Virus record (IMG/VR): IMGVR_UViG_3300032579_000010
Coordinates: 31,016-95,015 of that record
DNA length: 64,000 bases
DNA from: a virus
Direction: 5' to 3' (one strand)
In this document: positions 29,999 through 59,443 of the stretch, piece by piece
How positions within the stretch are numbered: position 1 is the stretch's first letter
How the letters are laid out: every line of letters begins with the position of its first letter
Program-made: the position numbers and the translations under genes
Notes under the pieces: generated by a model
The model's database searches: none
Told to the model about the DNA's origin: nothing
Seen by the model: the letters and a program-made list of their open reading frames with translations, nothing else

Positions 29999-31258
29999 CT
30001 AAGCCCCTAACTGACCGCCAAATCGCTCTGAGTCGTCCTTAATGGCAATCAGATTGGCGCAAACATAGGGAATCTGATGGGTCTGGTGCCAAGGGCTTGG
30101 ATAGAACGTCATCATACGGCTCTTTTGGAAATCAGTCTTGATTTCGGGAACGTACTTGCGGTAGTTAGCGTCAATCCAGTACCAAAAACTGTTTTCGTTA
30201 TAGAAAGCGTTGTGGGTTGGGTCTTGGTAAGCGCCTCGCCCGTCAGTACTAGGGGTGAGTGTGAGCAACATTCCACCTTGAGCCAAGACTCGGTACATTT
30301 CGTTCCACAGGCAAACTTTGTCAGGAATGTGCTCTAGGAAGTCAGCAGCACGGATTACACCAACCGTGCCGTCCTCCATGTCGCCCAAAACGTTGAAAAT
30401 GTCGCCAACTAGGTCGGCTGGCTCGTGCATATCCACCGACAAGAAGCCGGGCGCTGGGTTGTGCGCCGCACCGAGGTCAAGTGCTAGCAAGTTGTTGTCT
30501 TTTGCCCATTTCACTGACATTTCCATGATGTTGCGGTCATAGATTTCGACAGTCTTTTGTTGTATTTCGTTGTTTAGTTCCTGCTGAGCCTGACTCTGCT
30601 CGCTGTGGAGGCGCTGTAGGTACAACTTCTTTTGAATGTGGTGAAACTTTGTAACCTTGTAGAAGCGCACCATAATGTCAGCGTCGTCGCAAATGCGTAG
30701 AGACTTGTTGTATCCGCCGATTTTCTTGTACGTTGCAGCACGAAAGGCTCGCAAGTGGTTCGGAGCAAACCAAATGTAGGCGACGTGGTGGGGGTGTGGT
30801 GACTTTCCTTCACAAACGTGGTGTCCGTCCTCGTCGTCGTAGTAAGACCAGCCGTAAGAACGGTCAAACTCACGCTTGCTGGGGTTGCCTTGCTCGTCTA
30901 TTTCAGCAAAGTCTGAATAAACAAATCCGACCTCTGCGTCTGCGTCAAATGCCTTTTGCACTTCCTCTAGCGCCGTCGGCATCAAAAGGTCGTCATGGTC
31001 AAGTTCGATAAGGATTTCACCACTACAAAGGGCGACTGCCTCGTTCTTAAGGGTGCCGATAACGGGCTTTGACTTTGTGGTGTGGACTTTGACACGCTCG
31101 TCGTCTTGGTCGTACCAATCGTTTTCGCCTTCGAGGGCGTTACCGTTCAGTAACACCACCCATTCCCAGTCGGTAACAGTCTGGGCAACAAGGCTTTCGT
31201 AGCAGGTTCGTAACCATTTGGTGTTGTGACTTGGTGTGAAGATAGATAACATTTCCAT
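29999..31258 (-). CDS. GT2 glycosyltransferase fused to class I SAM methyltransferase-like domain
   Basis: SIFTPSHN, AQTVTDWEWVV, ELDHDD (DxD), DDAD; C-terminal LDLGAA...DFLEHIPD...RVLAQGG...QDPTH. Confidence 0.85.
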   Translation of the reverse strand: MEMLSIFTPSHNTKWLRTCYESLVAQTVTDWEWVVLLNGNALEGENDWYDQDDERVKVHTTKSKPVIGTLKNEAVALCSGEILIELDHDDLLMPTALEEVQKAFDADAEVGFVYSDFAEIDEQGNPSKREFDRSYGWSYYDDEDGHHVCEGKSPHPHHVAYIWFAPNHLRAFRAATYKKIGGYNKSLRICDDADIMVRFYKVTKFHHIQKKLYLQRLHSEQSQAQQELNNEIQQKTVEIYDRNIMEMSVKWAKDNNLLALDLGAAHNPAPGFLSVDMHEPADLVGDIFNVLGDMEDGTVGVIRAADFLEHIPDKVCLWNEMYRVLAQGGMLLTLTPSTDGRGAYQDPTHNAFYNENSFWYWIDANYRKYVPEIKTDFQKSRMMTFYPSPWHQTHQIPYVCANLIAIKDDSERFGGQLGA

Positions 31259-50962: not shown

Positions 50963-51597
50963 AAAGCGGAACCCCAGCAGCAACCCGTGAGGCGGCTGAA
51001 GCCGTGCTTGCGTTTGCGGCTATGTTGGTTCGGTTTCCCGAACGGGCGAAATCCCCTGCTTGCTTTGAGGCACTATCATGCGCCAACGCTGCTTGGAAAT
51101 GAAGTTGGCTTACCAATCCGTTTGTTTTATCCGCCAAATCAAAGTGCGCCCTTGCAAGTTCAGCGTGTTTACTGGCTATGTCTTGCAAGTTGTGTACTTT
51201 ATTGGGGTCTGCGTCAGGCGTATTTTGGACTTTTGACGCAAAGTTAGCAAGGTCTTTTGCTTTGGAAGCAACGTCTTTGGCTTGTTCGTAATCTTCTTGT
51301 TTGGCGTACTGGTTTCCCCGAAATGGGTGACCTGAAAAGTCGCCCTTAGCGATTTCACCACTTGCCTTGCCTGCAGGCTCACCCGTAGCGTCAATGTGGC
51401 GGAGTTGGCAGAACCCTTCTGGGTTGTCTATGTGCTTTCCAGCAATGGCAACACAAGCGTCAAAGTCACCGGGGCTACCCCAGTCAATCTGACCGTCAGC
51501 GCCGTTGTTGTACCAGTCAATCAAGCCTTGGGCATTTCCCGCCTTGTGGATTTCCACCTCACGGGCGTACTTGACCCAAGACAGAATGTCAGACATG
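50961..51597 (-). CDS. Head-associated cargo protein (WGSPGDF..C domain + tag + His/Ala helical domain)
   Basis: Likely start MSDILSW; IDWGSPGDFDACV...PEGFCQLRH; IAKGDFSGHPFRGNQY. Confidence 0.7.
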
Positions 51598-51606
51598 ACG
51601 AACCGA

Positions 51607-52818
51607 CTAGCCGTTAGCAACCATTGGGCTTTGTAGTGCGTCAGCCTGAGCGTTTAGGCGACCAGCGTAAGCACGTTGAACTGCGGCAAGTCCACGTTGT
51701 TCTGAACGTGCATCATCATCGCCAGTTTCCTTTGCGTGGAGTCCAGCAATACCTTCGTGGCTTCCTGCGGCTTGCATACGCAACTTCGCAGCAGTACGGA
51801 GTTCTTCCGCAGCCTTTTCAGTACGACCTACAGCGAGGTGTCCCTGAGCAAGTGCTTCGTGAGCATCTGCGGCAGACTTCGAGGCTTCAGCAGACTTGGC
51901 GTAACGAGACATTGTTTGCTTCCAACCTTCACGAATACCTAGGCGTGGGAAGTTACGAGCACCACCAGTCCATTGGTTGCCGTTGAATGAGTGTCCGGGT
52001 TGAGCACCTGAACCAGCACCGCCCTTGGCGATGTAGTCCTGATAAGCCTCTGACTTTTGGAAGTCCTTAGTAAGAAGTTCGTCTGTGTCAAATGGGTTGT
52101 TTTCAGCACTCTTGCTCAAAGCACCAATAAATACTGCGAGTGGGATAAATCCAGTTCCACATCCGTCACAACCTTCGCCCATGCAAGCAGGGCAGGTTAC
52201 GTCTGGGTTTTCTGGGTAGTCCGATGAGTCATCGTCGTCTGAACTGTCGTCAGGTTGACCGCTAGCGTCAAGCATTACAGCAGGGCCGTCAGAAAAAGAC
52301 TTGGTGAGCGAGAAGTCAGGAACCATAACACCATTTTGGTTCATAATCAACTTAGGAGCAACCTCAACTACGTCATCTTCCTTTTCGGTTTCTTGGTCTT
52401 CAGGCTGGTCTGGACCGTCCTGAACCATTTGACCGTAGCGGTTAGGGATTTCACCCTTAGCCACAGCACGGATACCCTCAAGAGCAGACTTAGCAAGGTC
52501 GAGTTGCTCGTTAGCCTCAGTCGAAGCCTTGTCAGCGTCACGGAAACCAGCGAGAGCGTTGTTGTAAGCCTTGCGCAGTTCCTCACGGTTCCACGACGAC
52601 TTGGCTACAGAATCGAAGTAAGCGATTTCAGTAGCCTTGAGGGTGGCGGTTGCCTTCTCAAGACGGAAGTTGGCGTTATCCACTGCGGACAAAGCCACTA
52701 CCTCAGCCTGTGCGGCCTTAAGGATTTGCTCGCCAGCAACACGCTGGGCGTTCTTCTCGTCAATGCCCTTTTGTACAAACGCAAGGGTGCTGGGAGTTGT
52801 GGTCGTGGTTTTAATCAT
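51607..52818 (-). CDS. Head-associated cargo protein (coiled coil, CxxC Zn site, tag, His/Ala domain)
   Basis: Many hydrophobic-x-K-[SAG] sites; CPACMGEGCDGC; IAKGGAGSGAQPGHSFNGNQW. Confidence 0.7.
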   Translation of the reverse strand: MIKTTTTTPSTLAFVQKGIDEKNAQRVAGEQILKAAQAEVVALSAVDNANFRLEKATATLKATEIAYFDSVAKSSWNREELRKAYNNALAGFRDADKASTEANEQLDLAKSALEGIRAVAKGEIPNRYGQMVQDGPDQPEDQETEKEDDVVEVAPKLIMNQNGVMVPDFSLTKSFSDGPAVMLDASGQPDDSSDDDDSSDYPENPDVTCPACMGEGCDGCGTGFIPLAVFIGALSKSAENNPFDTDELLTKDFQKSEAYQDYIAKGGAGSGAQPGHSFNGNQWTGGARNFPRLGIREGWKQTMSRYAKSAEASKSAADAHEALAQGHLAVGRTEKAAEELRTAAKLRMQAAGSHEGIAGLHAKETGDDDARSEQRGLAAVQRAYAGRLNAQADALQSPMVANG

Positions 52819-52897
52819 AGGGATTTTGCCTTTCGCTCTATGGTGAAAATGCTACACCGTGTTTCGTAAATCCTTGTTCCTAAAGGTTTTTTATTGC

Positions 52898-53362
52898 TTA
52901 AAACTTTGCGTGAAGTGGGTGACTTTCATCAAGCCCATTGTCGTTGCGAGCACTCACACCGTTAGGTACAAATAGTGGGTGGCTTGGGTCAAGACTGTTC
53001 ATAGACTTTTCCACCTCGTCAGACTCAACCTCAACCTCAGGCTCAACCTCAGGCTCAACCTCGACTTCGGCAGACTTCTTAATCCACTGCTCAGGAATCA
53101 TGTCCTCGGCACCGAGAGCCTTGGCTTGCTCGATAATGTGAGCGTGAACAGCGTCTTGGTCTTTGGCACGACCAGCCGACTGAATAGCGTTGGCGAGGTC
53201 TTCCTTGTTAGCAATCGGGAAAGAACCGTCAGGCATAGCCTTGCCCTTTTCAGCAAGTGCTTGGCGCTCGTCTTGCGAAACTTCACGCTTCGAGACAACC
53301 TTGTGACCAAGTGACTTGGCTACCCACTCTGCGATTTCTGCGTCTGTGATTTGTTCTGACAT
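52898..53362 (-). CDS. Head-associated protein with PDGSFPI domain
   Basis: DAEIAEW leader; ERQALAEKGKAMPDGSFPIANKEDLANAIQSAGRA...HII..AKALG..IPEQW. Confidence 0.7.
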   Translation of the reverse strand: MSEQITDAEIAEWVAKSLGHKVVSKREVSQDERQALAEKGKAMPDGSFPIANKEDLANAIQSAGRAKDQDAVHAHIIEQAKALGAEDMIPEQWIKKSAEVEVEPEVEPEVEVESDEVEKSMNSLDPSHPLFVPNGVSARNDNGLDESHPLHAKF

Positions 53363-53380
53363 TTCAGTACGTTCTTTCTA

Positions 53381-54061
53381 TTAGGCGGTTGCTGGGAGGC
53401 GGTTAGCGTTACCTGCGCTCTGAACACCAGCGGTCAGGCTTTGTACGGTGTTAGAGGCGGTCTGCGCTGCGTCCTGAGCGATTTGTGCTCGCATACCAGC
53501 CATCGAAGCGCCAGCAGGGTCAGCCTGTCCGTCAATACGACCAGCGTCATTCGTCGCCTTAGAAGCGATTTCAGCAAGGTCGCCAGCGTGGTGGGCTGAG
53601 GCGTAGAGAGCCTTTGCCTGTTGGTGACCAGTAGTGCCCGTGTCTTGCTTACGAGCGGCCCAAGCGGCGTGGCGAGCGGCTTCGTTGAAGTGACGCATCG
53701 CATCGCCGTGTTGCCCAGCACGAAGGCTTGCCTGTGCTGCGTCGGCTTCTTGCTTAGCAAGGGCGAGGTGGGTGTTGCCTGAAAGGTATTCGTCACCACG
53801 GGCATTGTGAGCGGTGGCTTGGAATGAGGCAGAGGTGTGACCGTTTCCACGGAAAGGGTGACCATCGTGTTCACCTGAACCCGGTCCGCCCTTTTCTACG
53901 TTCTGTACGCAGTCGGGGCAATCTACGTTGCCGTCCTTAATGGTGCCAGTACCACCACAAGTCTCACAGTCGGGGTTAGGCGACTTCGCCTTTTCCACCT
54001 CACGGTAGGCAGGGATGTTCATCTCTTCGATGACTTCGTTAGTTTCAACGGCTTCAGACAT
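53381..54061 (-). CDS. Head-associated cargo protein (DnaJ-type Zn finger, tag, His/Ala domain)
   Basis: CETCGGTG...CPDC; VEKGGPGSGEHDGHPFRGNGH. Confidence 0.7.
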   Translation of the reverse strand: MSEAVETNEVIEEMNIPAYREVEKAKSPNPDCETCGGTGTIKDGNVDCPDCVQNVEKGGPGSGEHDGHPFRGNGHTSASFQATAHNARGDEYLSGNTHLALAKQEADAAQASLRAGQHGDAMRHFNEAARHAAWAARKQDTGTTGHQQAKALYASAHHAGDLAEIASKATNDAGRIDGQADPAGASMAGMRAQIAQDAAQTASNTVQSLTAGVQSAGNANRLPATA

Positions 54062-54150
54062 AGGGGTTCCTTTCGGACGGATTAAGTAGTGTCTACTGCC
54101 TTAAATGCTACCCCTAGTTTTAGAAATCTTGGTTTAGATACCCGATTTCA

Positions 54151-54609
54151 CTACTGCGCTAGGTCTGGGCGCTGGCTTAAGATGTAGCGAACCGACGAGT
54201 GGAAGTTGTTGTCCGTCAGGGCGTTAATGTCGGCTGGGGTCGCCTGATTCACAAGCCACTTCGGGATTGCGTCTGCTGAACGCTCGTCGTTGCTCATTTT
54301 GGGAGTTCCCTTAATGGCTTCTGCCATGTCGGGGTGACGGTCTTCCGCTTCCATAATCTTGGCGGCGGTGTCAGTCATTGGGACTTGGTTCCAGTCAGAG
54401 GCGTAATCGCTGGCTTTTACCGAGGAAAGTGCTTCGGGCGTATTGTTCTTGTCGCCCCAGTTTCCACCACCAGACGTGTACTGGTTACCGTGGAAAGCGT
54501 GTCCCGGCACGTCTCCTTTGGCTACGAGGTCTGGCTGAGTAGCCTCGCCCATAGAGGCTTGTAGCCAAGCCGTGATTTCAGCATCGCTTGTGTCTTCCCA
54601 GTTGGTCAT
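54151..54609 (-). CDS. Tagged cargo protein
   Basis: DAEITAW leader; VAKGDVPGHAFHGNQY. Confidence 0.7.
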   Translation of the reverse strand: MTNWEDTSDAEITAWLQASMGEATQPDLVAKGDVPGHAFHGNQYTSGGGNWGDKNNTPEALSSVKASDYASDWNQVPMTDTAAKIMEAEDRHPDMAEAIKGTPKMSNDERSADAIPKWLVNQATPADINALTDNNFHSSVRYILSQRPDLAQ

Positions 54610-54611
54610 TG

Positions 54612-55046
54612 TTAGCCCCTTGCGGCTCGGCTCATAGCATCGGCTGTTTTTGATGCGTCAGAGGCGTTAATAAGAGAATCTTGTAGGTTGCTGTTTGCTT
54701 CGTTGTACATATCACGCATTTCTGGCGTTGCGTCTGTTGCGCCAGCCATTCCAGCAGCGTCTTCGACGTTTTCCTTGGCTTCCTTAGCGTCTTGGTAAGC
54801 CTTTACAGCGTTGATGTGAGCCGTGACTGCCTTGTCGTTCAAAAGAGCAGTCTTTGTGTCGCCTAGGGCATCTGCCTTGTCACGAGCGATTGAGTGCGCC
54901 GTTGCTTGTCCGAGGTGATAAGAAATAGCCTCGTTAATGGCACCCCCAACGCCAGCGCCCCATTGGTTGCCATGAAAAGCGTGTCCAGCAACGTCGCCCT
55001 TGGCAAAACGTACCCAGTTAATGATTTCAGCGTTGAGTTCAGTCAT
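54612..55046 (-). CDS. Tagged cargo protein
   Basis: NAEIINW leader; FAKGDVAGHAFHGNQW. Confidence 0.7.
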   Translation of the reverse strand: MTELNAEIINWVRFAKGDVAGHAFHGNQWGAGVGGAINEAISYHLGQATAHSIARDKADALGDTKTALLNDKAVTAHINAVKAYQDAKEAKENVEDAAGMAGATDATPEMRDMYNEANSNLQDSLINASDASKTADAMSRAARG

Positions 55047-55049
55047 TAT

Positions 55050-55532
55050 TTATCCAACCATTGAGTTAAAAGAAGCGCTTAGAGCGTCGTTGCTTGCTTG
55101 GTGAGCGTCACTAGGAAGGTCGCTAAACGTAGGCAAATAGGCTTTGCCTTCACCGTTGTTTTCACCAAGAGCCTTTATGTACGCTTGGTGAGCAACGTCT
55201 GAGGCGTGGAGATTTGCTTCTGCTTCCTTAAGGTCGCCACGGTCGGCGTGAATACCCGCTAAGGCTGAGTGAAGAAGCGATAGGCGGTTGAGGTCATTAA
55301 CCTTTGTGCCTGTAGTGAGCATACGATTACGCAATGCAGAAATCTTTTGCGAAGCGTCACGCACCGCTAGGTTGCTGTGTTCACGGTCTGCCCCAGCGTG
55401 TGTCCCGCCAGACATTTGACCTGCCGACCACTGGTTTCCGTGGAAAGCGTGTCCGGGTACGTCACCCTTTGCTATTTCACCAACCTTCGCCCAAGTAGGT
55501 GCGAGGTTGTCTGTGGAAAAAGGATTATTCAT
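55050..55532 (-). CDS. Tagged cargo protein
   Basis: Start 55532 after AAAGGA RBS (in-frame upstream ATG at 55580); NPFSTDNLAPTW leader; IAKGDVPGHAFHGNQW. Confidence 0.7.
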   Translation of the reverse strand: MNNPFSTDNLAPTWAKVGEIAKGDVPGHAFHGNQWSAGQMSGGTHAGADREHSNLAVRDASQKISALRNRMLTTGTKVNDLNRLSLLHSALAGIHADRGDLKEAEANLHASDVAHQAYIKALGENNGEGKAYLPTFSDLPSDAHQASNDALSASFNSMVG

Positions 55533-55579
55533 TGTTATTCCTTTAGGCGAGTTGATTATTTCAGCATCTATGTCAGTCA

Positions 55580-56077
55580 TTAGCGATACTCATCGAATGG
55601 TGCTAGCAAAGAAGTTTTAAGATTGGCATTTACAGTTGCGTTAAATGCTTTTGAGGTAGCGTCTGACGCTGACCTTGCCTCTGGTTGGTTTGCCGAGTAT
55701 GGCTCTGCATCGTATTGCGCATTTTTAGCACCTAAGTGCGCCTCTGCTGCGTCAAGGTGCGCCTGATATGCGTCACCTGCTCTACCCCATCTTTGTGGTG
55801 GGATTTGACCACTTTGAACGGCATCTAGAATGTCTCTTGCAAGTTGAACGTGACCACTAGCAATAGTCCCGTGTTGGAAAGCCATTGCACTTCCGTTTTC
55901 ACCACGGTTTGAACGATTAACAACAGACCTAGAAGCAGTAGTAAGTGCCTTTGACTGCCCTACGGCTGTTGTTGCTTGCCATTGGTTGCCGTGAAAGGCG
56001 TGACCTACGACATCCCCTTTAAGGATTTCACTAGCCTTAGACCAGTTTGGAACGAGGTCGTTTGTATTGAATGACAT
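55580..56077 (-). CDS. Tagged cargo protein
   Basis: FNTNDLVPNW leader; ILKGDVVGHAFHGNQW. Confidence 0.7.
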   Translation of the reverse strand: MSFNTNDLVPNWSKASEILKGDVVGHAFHGNQWQATTAVGQSKALTTASRSVVNRSNRGENGSAMAFQHGTIASGHVQLARDILDAVQSGQIPPQRWGRAGDAYQAHLDAAEAHLGAKNAQYDAEPYSANQPEARSASDATSKAFNATVNANLKTSLLAPFDEYR

Positions 56078-56088
56078 AGTTGCTCTCC

Positions 56089-57609
56089 TTAGCGGTTTGG
56101 GAAGGTTGCTGGGTTGTCGTATTCGGTAGGAAGGTCAACTTCTACGCCAGCGCCGGTGCCACCGATTGAGTAGCCACGGATTTCGCCCTTCTTGACAAGT
56201 TCCCAAGCCCAAGGTTCCCATTGCACACCAAGGAATACGGTGCCAGCAGGGAACTGTTGCTTTGTGATTTCACCAGTGTCGGCTTTCATCATTGGAACTT
56301 CGACTTCGTGGGGCCACGTCAGTGCCTCAACCCACTTACCAGCCACAATGTTTACGTTGTGCTGAAGGCGAATGTCACGGTCACCGTTTTCTACATAACC
56401 CCAAAGAGCCTTTTGTAGTTCTTCTGGGTCTGTCCATTCGCCATGTGCGTCTGCACGGTTTGGAACGTACCAAGGACCAAGGGTGTAGCGAAGTTCTGCG
56501 TTTTTCTTGATTTGGTTAGGGATTTCAGTAATAACTTCTTTGCTCTTTTGCATCAAGTTTGCGTCTTGTACAACTTGTGGGTTCACAACGTCGTCAGACA
56601 GAACAGTCATGTTCTCAGGAACAAACTTAGGCTTGCGACGGCGTGAGCCGACCATTGTGCCAACGGCATCAACGTGAACTTCACTTACGCCCGGACCTTC
56701 TTTTTCCACCACAGTCTCGGCGGTGCGAGTCTTGGCTTCCTTGTACATTTCGTTGGCTTCGCCAGCGGCACGGATAAGGACGGGGACAATGTTGAACTTG
56801 CACCAGCCGTTAGGTGATACCTGCGTGGCAACCCAGTCGCAAGTGCCATTCATGTAGGCAATGCAACCAGAGCAGTTTCCAGCATCGCCAAAGGGCGAGT
56901 TGTCAGTGTATGAAGCGTCAGTCGTAGGGAAACGACCAATGTTGTCAACTACTGCGTCAATGCTTTCAGCAAGTTCGACTTGCCAAGGGTCAAGACCGTC
57001 CTTCCAGTGGTCGCCAAGGTCGCTGTCAAGAGCGGCGCTTGAGGAACTGGAACTGCTGGACGAGGACGAACTGCTGGACGAGGACGAACTGCTGGACGAG
57101 GACGAGGAACTGTCGTCGCTACTGTCCTTGTCATCAACGATTTCCACCACGGCAGGCGTACTCGACGTACTTGAACTGTCGCTTGACGACGAAGACGAGG
57201 AACTGCTTGAGTCGGAACTTGAGGAACTGCTCGAACTTTCGTCCTCACGGCTTTGCTGAACCGCCTGAAGGATAGCGGCGACGGTAGCAGGGTCTAGTTG
57301 TACCTGAACGGTGCCCATAGTTGAGTCGTCGCTGTCGTCAGAACTGTCGTCAGAACTGTCGTCCTGTGGCTCAATGGGAGCGGCGTTGAACGTGAATGGG
57401 AATCCAATCGCCTTGTTTTTTTCACCAACGGGGGCGAGAATAAGTGAGGATTCGCCTGCCTTCTCAACGGCAATCAGGTCGGCAGAAGCGTAGCCCTCGG
57501 TCAAAAGGTCGGCGGCTGACTTACGGAGTTCGTTGTCTAGGTGCTCGCTTACAATGATTTCAGTAAGTGATACGTCCTTGACAACATCGAGGATATTTAG
57601 TTCGTCCAT
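56089..57609 (-). CDS. Prohead maturation protease, XkdF-like, with long Ser/Asp-rich N-terminal region
   Basis: RYTLGPWYVP..DAHGEW...IRLQH...GTVFLGV..W..VKKGEIRGYSIGG; follows portal; CSGC...C...GWC motif. Confidence 0.85.
   Translation of the reverse strand: MDELNILDVVKDVSLTEIIVSEHLDNELRKSAADLLTEGYASADLIAVEKAGESSLILAPVGEKNKAIGFPFTFNAAPIEPQDDSSDDSSDDSDDSTMGTVQVQLDPATVAAILQAVQQSREDESSSSSSSSDSSSSSSSSSSDSSSTSSTPAVVEIVDDKDSSDDSSSSSSSSSSSSSSSSSSSSSSSSSAALDSDLGDHWKDGLDPWQVELAESIDAVVDNIGRFPTTDASYTDNSPFGDAGNCSGCIAYMNGTCDWVATQVSPNGWCKFNIVPVLIRAAGEANEMYKEAKTRTAETVVEKEGPGVSEVHVDAVGTMVGSRRRKPKFVPENMTVLSDDVVNPQVVQDANLMQKSKEVITEIPNQIKKNAELRYTLGPWYVPNRADAHGEWTDPEELQKALWGYVENGDRDIRLQHNVNIVAGKWVEALTWPHEVEVPMMKADTGEITKQQFPAGTVFLGVQWEPWAWELVKKGEIRGYSIGGTGAGVEVDLPTEYDNPATFPNR
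57040..57112. repeat. 18-bp tandem repeat encoding poly-Ser
   Basis: (gaactgctggacgaggac) x3. Confidence 0.85.
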
Positions 57610-57674: not shown

Positions 57675-57788
57675 TTAGCGGAAGTGGCGGCGTGTTGGGG
57701 CAACGCCCTTAAACGGCACCGAACGAGCCTTTATGGTCGTCTGCTTTTTTTTTCCAGCAGAGTTAGTCGGCTTTATTCGGATTTTCAC
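57675..57788 (-). CDS. 37 aa very basic microprotein (below cutoff)
   Basis: GTGA overlap with portal stop; MKIRIKPTNSAGKKKQTTIKARSVPFKGVAPTRRHFR*. Confidence 0.45.
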   Translation of the reverse strand: MKIRIKPTNSAGKKKQTTIKARSVPFKGVAPTRRHFR

Positions 57789-59443
57789 GAAGTTGAGCCT
57801 TGGTTGTTAATAAGTGGGCTATTTGTAACTGGTCCGTTCTGACCTGTGGTGTTTCCCGTAGCGCCCTTGCCTGACGGCGGTGTTTGTCCAGTTTGACCGG
57901 GGTAGCCCTGACTCGAAATGTCAGCCATGATGCCACTGCCACCGCTTTGGTCGTTCTTTCCACCTTGGGGGTTTTGTACGCCACTAGGAGTTGTGTTGGG
58001 CTGTGCCGAAGCACCAGTTACCGCCGAGTTTGCGGCAATAAAGTTCTTTTTGTTGTCGTGGGTTTGCTCGGTCTGACCCGGCTGAGTCATGTTTTCACCA
58101 TAACGAGAGTTGTCGGCAACACCGTTGGCTTCTGGTCTGAAGGCTGGCAATCCAGCCAGTTCACGCAGGAAGTCCTCAAGGTTGTTGTCAGGCGTAAGAA
58201 GTTGCGACTGAGAAAGGTTGGTGAGGAACGTACCAAGTTCCACCAAGTCCACCGCAGAAACCTGACCATATGCCAGTTGGGGCATACGGGAAGTGTCAAA
58301 GCCGTTCAGCGACATTAGGCGTGGCAATGCGTGGCTGTTGAATACCTCACAAATCAGGCGAATCCAAGATTCCACTGCGGCGATAAACAAGTCCACCTTG
58401 GAAGCGCCCAAAGCGAAGGAACCGACGGATTCGTGACCCAACATAATGAAGTCAGCCAGAACCGTCATGGCAATCTGCTGGTTGTAGCGAGTAATGATTT
58501 GGTCAGTGTTGAACTGACGAGCACCGCCAGAGTTCATCAACTTAAAGTCCACTAACTGCTTGCCGTTCTCGTCAAACATCATTGGCAAGATAATGCCTTC
58601 GGCTTCGTTGCGCTTTACGCCTCGTACAATGCGTTCCATAGCGCCCAATGACGCTTTTTCACTAGGTGTGGCAGAGGCACTCATCCACTCGGCAGGAACG
58701 TAACCAACGGGCAGTCCAGCCAAGTCACGCTCAACGCCGACTGCCTCAAACTCTTCGATACGGCGCTTGTAGTACCACGACTTAAACGAGTTACGTAGGA
58801 CTGAGCGACCTTCTGGGTTTCCACGAGCGGTGGTGGTGCGGAACAGCAAAGCCTTTTCGATTGGGATAACGTTCAGGCGACCCGTCGTTGGGTCACGTTG
58901 AATCATTGCCTTGATTCCACCACTCTCGTCAAACTGCCACTGCCACAGACTGTCCTGTGCTCGCATAGCAATCTTGCGCCAGCCGACCTTGTTGTCGCTG
59001 AACTTGGAGCGCATTGACGGGTCTTTTTGTTCCGGTCCCTTGCGTTGCTTGTAGACAATCTCAAAGAAAGACCAGCCGTAAGGTAGAAAACTGAGGATAG
59101 CAATCATCAGTTCGTGCCACGAGTGGCTCATGTCGTCCATACATTCTTGGACAAAGGCGGCGACGGCACGGTCATTGTCCGTTGGCGTTTCACCAGTCTG
59201 GTCGTCGTAAGGGTCTACTCGCCAGTCCACCTGAAGGATTACACGTTCGATAGCAAAGAGGATTGACCCAATAATCGGGTCGTTTTCACTCATGTCACGG
59301 TAAGCGGTTAGTGCTTGTCGTCCTCGAAGTTGAGGCAGGATGTCGTCAATGACGAATCCACCCGTGCGCCAAAGACCCGTAGCACCCAGTTCTGAGAAGT
59401 TATCTACAGGTTGTAGAGGTATTTGTTCCTCGTTATCTGGCAT
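57785..59443 (-). CDS. Portal protein (Mu gp29/DUF935-like)
   Basis: ELGATG, YRDMSENDP, YGWSFFEIVY, GNPEGRSVLR, VERDLAGLP, GSFALG motifs. Confidence 0.9.
   Translation of the reverse strand: MPDNEEQIPLQPVDNFSELGATGLWRTGGFVIDDILPQLRGRQALTAYRDMSENDPIIGSILFAIERVILQVDWRVDPYDDQTGETPTDNDRAVAAFVQECMDDMSHSWHELMIAILSFLPYGWSFFEIVYKQRKGPEQKDPSMRSKFSDNKVGWRKIAMRAQDSLWQWQFDESGGIKAMIQRDPTTGRLNVIPIEKALLFRTTTARGNPEGRSVLRNSFKSWYYKRRIEEFEAVGVERDLAGLPVGYVPAEWMSASATPSEKASLGAMERIVRGVKRNEAEGIILPMMFDENGKQLVDFKLMNSGGARQFNTDQIITRYNQQIAMTVLADFIMLGHESVGSFALGASKVDLFIAAVESWIRLICEVFNSHALPRLMSLNGFDTSRMPQLAYGQVSAVDLVELGTFLTNLSQSQLLTPDNNLEDFLRELAGLPAFRPEANGVADNSRYGENMTQPGQTEQTHDNKKNFIAANSAVTGASAQPNTTPSGVQNPQGGKNDQSGGSGIMADISSQGYPGQTGQTPPSGKGATGNTTGQNGPVTNSPLINNQGSTS

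Follow-up and report, generated by a model that had tools for sequence, protein, structure and literature searches.

Short N-terminal leaders on head-module proteins of an uncultured lake-phage group: candidate clip-off address peptides

Introduction

Why do small proteins of unrelated kinds, encoded side by side among the head genes of a virus, begin with the same few short peptides? This question is raised by the right-hand 64 kb of the 95-kb IMG/VR virus record IMGVR_UViG_3300032579_000010 (CheckV completeness estimate 74%), that is, the 64,000 nucleotides from position 31,016 to 95,015, which we call the window. On its minus strand, a WhiB-like gene and the portal gene (57785-59443) are followed by the gene of a 506-amino-acid (aa) protein with a prohead protease domain, and then by eight small genes and the gene of a 1026-aa polyprotein. 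One or more GHxFxGN tags, among them a GD type (GDxxGHxFxGNQ[WY]) and a GGxGSG type, are found in all of these small genes and in the polyprotein gene, except for the gene of a 154-aa protein. Farther along the same strand lie several enzyme genes and then the scaffold-like, decoration-like and major head genes. The genes with leaders are thus located between the portal and protease genes on one side and the scaffold-like and major head genes on the other. Two types of leader, here termed T1 and T2, had been described in an original prediction made from the window.

We suggest, with a probability of about 0.5, that these leaders serve as clip-off address peptides of cargo that is translated separately. 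T1 and T2 would be short, flexible N-terminal propeptides of separately translated head-cargo proteins in a phage with an XkdF-type prohead protease. During prohead assembly the leader would dock its cargo to some internal component, and the protease would then cut after the Lys of a hydrophobic-x-Lys (h-x-K) site and free the leader. Where a tag follows, this cut would make the GDxxGHxFxGNQ[WY] tag the new N-terminus. Modules within polyproteins would need no leader of their own, being brought in by the chain that carries them. The cutting, the removal and the capsid targeting are what we infer from the sequence patterns described below.

Results

Two leader classes are conserved in related arrays

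A portal-based search returned 67 related loci from viral contigs of lake metagenomes. Tag arrays are present in 30 of the 67 and are invariably on the strand of the portal gene; the portals of these approximately 30 contigs are 71-92% identical to that of the window. We derived the two leaders from this clade. T1, with 52 non-redundant examples, is a 16-residue unit of the form M-[ST]-[DN]-[LI]-[DN]-[AS]-E-I-x-x-W-[VLI]-x-h-A-K (h, hydrophobic), usually with G as the next residue; the E is kept in 40 of 52, the I in 44 of 52, and W is residue 11 in 29 of 52. T2, with 20 non-redundant examples, reads M-x-(N)-P-F-x-T-[DE]-x-L-(L), with F as residue 5 in 11 of 20, and is followed by 5-15 residues and then h-x-K. 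The spacers are few in kind (YPITK, AGQGIYxVxK, xPxWxxAxEILK and DPIGxxxxxILK), and all of them end in h-x-K.

Position-specific matrices trained on the related loci only, with the window excluded, were scanned over the six frames of the 64 kb. The four top T1 scores, against a best background of 11.4 bits, all fall on N-termini. They belong to the canonical leader of the 144-aa gene, MTELNAEIINWVRFAK, which begins MTELNAEIINW and is directly followed by a tag (54999-55046, minus strand as are all features below; 32.0 bits), to the 154-aa gene, MSEQITDAEIAEWVAK, first quoted as MSEQITDAEIAEW, in which the tag is absent (53315-53362; 26.9 bits), to a long T1 leader of the 152-aa gene (SDAEITAW ... 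DLVAK), which precedes a tag and a folded helical body (54517-54609; 20.2 bits), and to the T1-derived N-terminus of the 219-aa gene, MSDILSWVKYAREVEIHK, with the looser MSDILSW (51543-51596; 12.5 bits). Orthologues of this last protein have either a full T1 (NEIEQW, NEIRNW or DDINAW) or T2 and then a T1-like stretch. A degenerate T1 (54005-54061) opens the 226-aa gene, ETNEVIEEMNIPAY, where the motif has decayed to NEVIEEM; orthologues start with NEVQEWVIPFYK or similar and have NEVQEW, NAIQEW or SQIEEW. It is followed by a CxxCxGxG zinc-ribbon module and a GGPGSG-type tag.

The three top T2 scores, against a best background of 11.9 bits, mark the N-terminus of the 176/160-aa gene, MNNPFSTDNLAPTWAKVGEIAK, first quoted as MNNPFSTDNLAPTW, which has an AAAGGA ribosome-binding site 7 nucleotides upstream and continues into a tag (55467-55532; 24.7 bits), an internal site of the 403-aa protein (NPFDTDELLT ... 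DYIAK, within which ENNPFDTDELL had been quoted) upstream of a GGAGSG-type tag and kept in 9 orthologues (52024-52098; 18.5 bits), and the N-terminus of the 165-aa gene, MSFNTNDLVPNWSKASEILK, first quoted as MSFNTNDLVPNW, followed by the tag GDVVGHAFHGNQW (56018-56077; 18.3 bits). All leader strings on which the original prediction was built are therefore present, the leave-window-out matrices rank exactly these sites top, and the conservation in homologues that it expected is borne out by the 52 and 20 examples.

The leaders end at a candidate protease site

That both leaders run into a hydrophobic-x-K site, as proposed from the window, holds across the related arrays: among 117 non-redundant sites directly before tags, K is the last residue in 98, and 99 have V, I, F or L two positions earlier. 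The h-x-K site is not tied to the tag, as it also ends T1 in tagless proteins. Furthermore, it brackets the zinc-ribbon modules, precedes the REFSDD module within the 403-aa family and is present at every module junction.

A candidate enzyme is encoded at 56089-57609, directly downstream of the portal gene. Here, the 506-aa head protein carries a C-terminal XkdF-type prohead protease domain (~56149-56508), which matches Pfam PF14550 with an E-value of 7.5e-13 and 49 bits, versus a cut-off of 24, and is assigned by PHROG as a head maturation protease. In approximately 20 lineages, an h-x-K lies directly before the sequence xGPxVxxVHVD (DSPTVxxVHVD in many of them) that leads into this domain, and it is kept at this junction within hypervariable flanks. 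In the window, it is V-E-K at residues 301-303 (56701-56709), just before EGPGVSEVHVD, and is likely a self-processing site. Its conservation immediately ahead of the protease's own domain makes h-x-K a plausible site of this enzyme. This conservation is the best evidence at hand that the enzyme probably cuts after the Lys of h-x-K.

Several other features of the protease protein were observed. In the window, a long poly-Ser/Asp tract (57040-57330) separates its N-terminal domain from a Cys-rich domain, and about 70 residues that all relatives keep are lost. In three related loci, tagged payload is found within the protease polyprotein, between the Cys-rich and protease domains (L046, 11790-13868; L038, 1527-3851; L030, 2360-4444). 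The N-terminal region contains a conserved G[FY]xTADL[LM]AVxK (window 57460-57500, residues 37-50; 20 related loci), which by eye resembles T2 with a Lys site. It gave no T2 matrix score in the window, and we keep it as a lead only.

Leaders, tags and free N-termini

A T1+tag profile was searched against 1.84 billion cluster representatives. At an E-value of 0.001 or better it matched 878 proteins, many of them polyproteins, with up to 9 tags. For the genome scan, the first tag alignment was too variable and a narrower version was used.

Within the clade, T1 or T2 precedes 55 of 63 N-terminal tags versus 10 of 76 internal ones; none of these ten is T1, and nine are in the 403-aa family. Among the 150 best worldwide matches, the corresponding counts are 26 of 92 and 5 of 425, while random 45-residue windows contain T1 or T2 in 10 of 1120 cases. 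As leaders are scarce at internal tags, cutting at polyprotein junctions would not need them, and the leaders would therefore go with chains that are made separately and have a free N-terminus of their own. This N-terminal specificity is more in keeping with an address label than with a general component of a cut site. A natural comparison is provided by the 152-aa body, which has T1 when it stands alone (window, L032 and L040); in L046, where a body of this type is embedded in the protease polyprotein, the tag is kept and T1 is absent.

The two leaders differ in their relation to the tag. T1 is followed by a GD-type tag in 8 cases, by a GGxGSG-type tag in 12, by another tag in 6 and by none nearby in 30, whereas the respective numbers for T2 are 16, 1, 1 and 2. 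The claim that leader and tag are separable parts, drawn from the single 154-aa gene, can thus be widened: no tag lies within 75 residues of 30 non-redundant T1 leaders, of which it has one, and leaderless tags are numerous. T1 is strictly N-terminal apart from rare gene fusions (such as c181 in L046, P0042, and P0021 and P0072, in which h-x-K stands on both sides of T1) and is independent of the tag. The two leaders are not equivalent: T2 mostly comes together with the GD-type tag and is found at internal sites too.

That T2 goes with a GD-type tag in 16 of its 20 examples, and again precedes the internal tags of the 403-aa family, suggests another explanation, in which the leaders are substrate handles. 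They would form the upstream half of an extended protease site and aid the enzyme in gripping and cutting it close to a free N-terminus, without taking part in capsid targeting; the tag or some other element would load the capsid. In line with this, every N-terminal tag worldwide has some leader, at times of 6-9 residues, and the tag, with its 878 cluster representatives, is far commoner than T1 or T2. However, neither T1 nor T2 is found at 66 of the 76 internal tags of the clade or at 420 of the 425 worldwide, so that cutting would not depend on leaders. Moreover, a T1 leader lacks a nearby tag in more than half of the cases, and a conserved 16-residue unit at a fixed distance from the initiator Met exceeds the needs of a cut-site flank. 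We regard the handle explanation, the main rival, as rather unlikely.

Leaders head unrelated bodies and have been exchanged

When the bodies were clustered with tags masked, T1 was found to head at least 14 and T2 at least 7 unrelated families. Since most families keep one leader type, the leader is usually inherited together with the body. Three exchanges are nevertheless visible; in two of them orthologues have swapped leaders, and the third is a recombination scar. In the phrog_6439 family, which includes the window's 219-aa gene, bodies that are 80% identical start with MSDILSW in the window, with a full T1 in L016, L022 and L026, and with MRNPFETEAL and a T1-like stretch in L032, L040 and L046. 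Likewise, a CxxCxGxG zinc-ribbon module bracketed by h-x-K stands behind T1 in L013 and behind T2 in L044.

The third case concerns the 176-aa open reading frame (ORF), which has two in-frame starts. The second (MNNPF...) has a ribosome-binding site typical of the array; at the first, the ATG overlaps the upstream stop codon and opens the sequence MTDIDAEIINS. This truncated T1 remnant, MTDIDAEIINSPKGIT (55533-55580), in frame upstream of the T2 start, matches positions 1-10 of the T1+tag profile weakly and ends after ten residues, interrupted by a segment that carries the ribosome-binding site of the T2 start. It looks like a recombination scar, as if a T2-led cassette had taken the place of the remaining part of a T1-led gene. 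The view of T1 and T2 as two interchangeable types therefore stands as far as the swaps between orthologous bodies and the many bodies per type are concerned. It does not stand for their use, as T2 is bound to the GD-type tag and partly internal, whereas T1 is N-terminal.

Other modules of these genes were noted as well. DnaJ-like CxxCxGxG zinc ribbons of about 25 residues, with h-x-K on both sides, lie between leader and tag in the 226-aa gene (53900-54000) and at ~52130-52215 in the 403-aa gene of the window, and at 5796 in L013 and 11632 in L044. Residues 16-95 of the 154-aa protein (AMPDGSFPI...HIIEQAKALGA) share 59-69% identity with a module that lies inside the 403-aa family proteins of nine other loci. 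This module is absent from the window's own 403-aa protein (51607-52818) and present in the 154-aa gene (52898-53362), so it has moved between these two neighbouring genes. A small gene that starts with T1 and directly precedes the 403-aa family gene has one or two copies of a [DES]HPL[HSTQ] motif at its end, which may be a further short C-terminal signal (window 52898-52950; ORF starts at L004 17775, L016 7166, L022 14901 and L023 7750).

The leader and tag lie outside the confidently folded part in an AlphaFold2 model of the 152-aa protein. From residue 51 onwards, the blocks of the body have mean predicted local distance difference test (pLDDT) values of 81-96, mostly above 85. The leader, a helix at residues 5-19, reaches about 50 and the tag, which is disordered, about 40. 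The model of the T2-led 165-aa protein is of low confidence throughout. The mean hydrophobic moment of T1 is 0.40 versus 0.28 +/- 0.14 for shuffled sequences; as this is only modestly higher, a claim that T1 forms an amphipathic helix would be weak, and we do not make it.

The predicted helix could also mean that leaders are retained in the mature protein, for example as an oligomerisation helix, as a contact to DNA or membrane, or for ordered exit during infection, with h-x-K left uncut. The T1-like stretch of phrog_6439 proteins, which continues straight into the conserved domain, agrees with such a role. However, h-x-K is kept at the end of T1 whatever follows, as well as on both sides of T1 in the fusions mentioned above, the bodies that are headed differ entirely in kind, and amphipathicity is weak. 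Overall, retention seems to us quite improbable.

Selection acts on the peptide

In the nine tags of the window, third codon positions are 49% identical where the residues are identical. At the conserved positions of T1 several codons are in use, and the mean nucleotide identity of T1 cores is 48%. Judged by this codon usage, selection is on the peptide. That a roleless peptide merely reflects shared 5' gene ends, conserved as nucleic acid for cassette recombination or translation start, is hardly credible: the scar inside a T1 leader and frequent cassette exchange would agree with it, but third codon positions vary freely while residues are kept, and ribosome-binding sites lie upstream of the leaders.

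The tag is general, T1 and T2 belong to one lineage

The idea that there are only two types of leader did not hold up, as more exist both in the clade and worldwide. In the clade, MSSIQDVRKFLVRERFVVLK and MDFDAIINILK were found in addition. Worldwide, some leader always stands ahead of a tag near the N-terminus, and the types vary by group: T1, T2, MDFxxILRxITK, MVRRFYTPFSRILK and MTTAxIEEAVQTK. Others are Arg/Leu-rich and end in L before the GD, and still others consist of only 6-9 residues. The tag also occurs on contigs binned with other phyla, one of which adjoins an HK97-type protease. In L073 (8276-14299), binned as Bifidobacteriaceae, there are three tags preceded by Ala and not by Lys, two of them in a C-terminal extension of a Mu-type portal fused to an LPD3 domain and the third in the next gene. 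From this distribution, the tag is a general element, whereas T1 and T2 are inventions of one lineage. Such a restriction is as expected for a peptide that fits a lineage-specific partner.

Among cultured phages, the nearest portals, about 50% identical, are those of Arthrobacter phages such as Laroye, which has the same head-gene layout as the window but neither tags nor leaders. A nucleotide search with the region matched no cultured phage, and a word-indexed protein search with residues 1-40 of the 144-aa protein returned a single, near-identical match. Within the related loci, a sub-clade of L025, L028, L029 and L035 has only T1 and a third leader type; T2 and the 403-aa family gene are absent from the flanking sequence covered, although the arrays may run further.

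Discussion

Our comparison of related arrays points to leaders that are conserved as peptides, head unrelated proteins at their free N-termini and end at a candidate protease site, which would suit clip-off address peptides for separately made cargo. Several observations weigh against this interpretation. A docking partner was not found: the T1 and T2 matrices reach at most 3.8 bits in the portal, protease, scaffold-like, decoration and major head proteins. Mimicry of the scaffold by the leaders was rejected on the same scores, since T1 and T2 resemble no segment of the scaffold-like or head proteins. Furthermore, T2 has a conserved internal site in the 403-aa family and mostly accompanies the GD-type tag, for which a role as a site extension fits equally, and the leaders of 6-9 residues before tags elsewhere indicate that a leader can be a bare cut-site flank. 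Some array proteins, namely the 403-aa family and the 1026-aa polyprotein, start with neither leader. The leader helix is of low confidence in the models and only modestly amphipathic, and protein searches with the five-tag polyprotein and with the T1+tag peptide found the cassette in no cultured phage.

T1 is the clearer address label of the two: it is a fixed unit of 16 residues and always N-terminal, whether a tag follows or not. T2 could be either a second such label or an upstream extension of the tag site. A bolder version, in which T1 and T2 form a two-label sorting code that directs cargo to different sites or layers of the prohead, or sets copy number or order of exit, strikes us as distinctly unlikely. 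Together with h-x-K and the tag, such a code would be part of a general loading system of phages with XkdF- or HK97-type proteases that could be read from sequence across phyla.

If the leaders are indeed address peptides, sequence alone would be enough to list the proteins that a large group of uncultured lake phages packs into its capsids and probably delivers together with the DNA. As small, portable labels, the leaders could also serve to load proteins of choice into a capsid unlike that of T4, and the principle known from phages T4 and P1 would extend to another protease family with another cut rule. Moreover, the contrast between an N-terminal T1 and a tag-coupled T2 poses the concrete question of how the parts divide targeting and cutting between them.

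Short terminal peptides that dock cargo in a protein shell are also known as the cargo-loading peptides of encapsulins, whose shell has the phage-capsid fold, and as the encapsulation peptides of bacterial microcompartments. As described, these share with T1 and T2 the terminal docking peptide; they differ in that they are usually not cut off.

The array also has points in common with polyvalent proteins, single chains of many effector-like modules that in some cases end in an assemblin-like peptidase (Iyer et al. 2017, PMC5512222). Tag-bearing relatives with up to 9 tags, the payload in the protease polyprotein and the LPD3 domain in L073 resemble them, whereas in the array itself the modules are mostly separate small genes. 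The text of PMC5512222 contains neither "GNQ" nor "GHxF", so the tag is apparently undescribed there, and a literature search with the tag string and the GNQ motif returned no relevant paper; neither the text nor the literature was searched for the leader motifs.

The closest parallel is phage T4, whose internal proteins are diverse and have nothing in common but a capsid targeting sequence (CTS) that loads them onto the scaffolding core (PMC3012670). The CTS also loads foreign proteins and permits their processing (Mullaney and Black 1996, as cited in PMC9024508 and PMC10052503). As in the T4 proteins IPI-III and Alt, the short N-terminal peptide is the sole part shared by a variable set of proteins, and the same peptide stands on unrelated proteins of the head module; the h-x-K at its end would correspond to the prohead-protease motif of T4. 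Strict membership in the T4 CTS family fails, however, as the window protease is of the XkdF type (PF14550) and not gp21, and the presumed cut is after Lys and not after the Glu of a hydrophobic-x-Glu motif. The arrays further differ from T4 in having at least two leader classes, an extra conserved tag on the retained side and the same junctions inside polyproteins, and they are known from sequence alone.

In phage P1, the 30 N-terminal residues of DarB are enough to bring about capsid loading (PMC9024508). This too is an N-terminal signal, and its roughly 30 residues are sufficient to load a foreign protein; it has been described for one protein, whereas the motif here is shared across an array. 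The prohead protease of phage SPN3US removes propeptides of 20 and 24 residues from gp225 and gp45 (PMC10052503). These leaders are similarly short and are lost in head maturation. In contrast to T1 and T2, they end at an A/S/G-x-E motif, are cut by a T4-like protease and have not been reported as a shared, exchangeable motif. By analogy, the system of the window probably works like the leaders of T4, P1 and SPN3US: the principle is known, and the form that it takes here is different.

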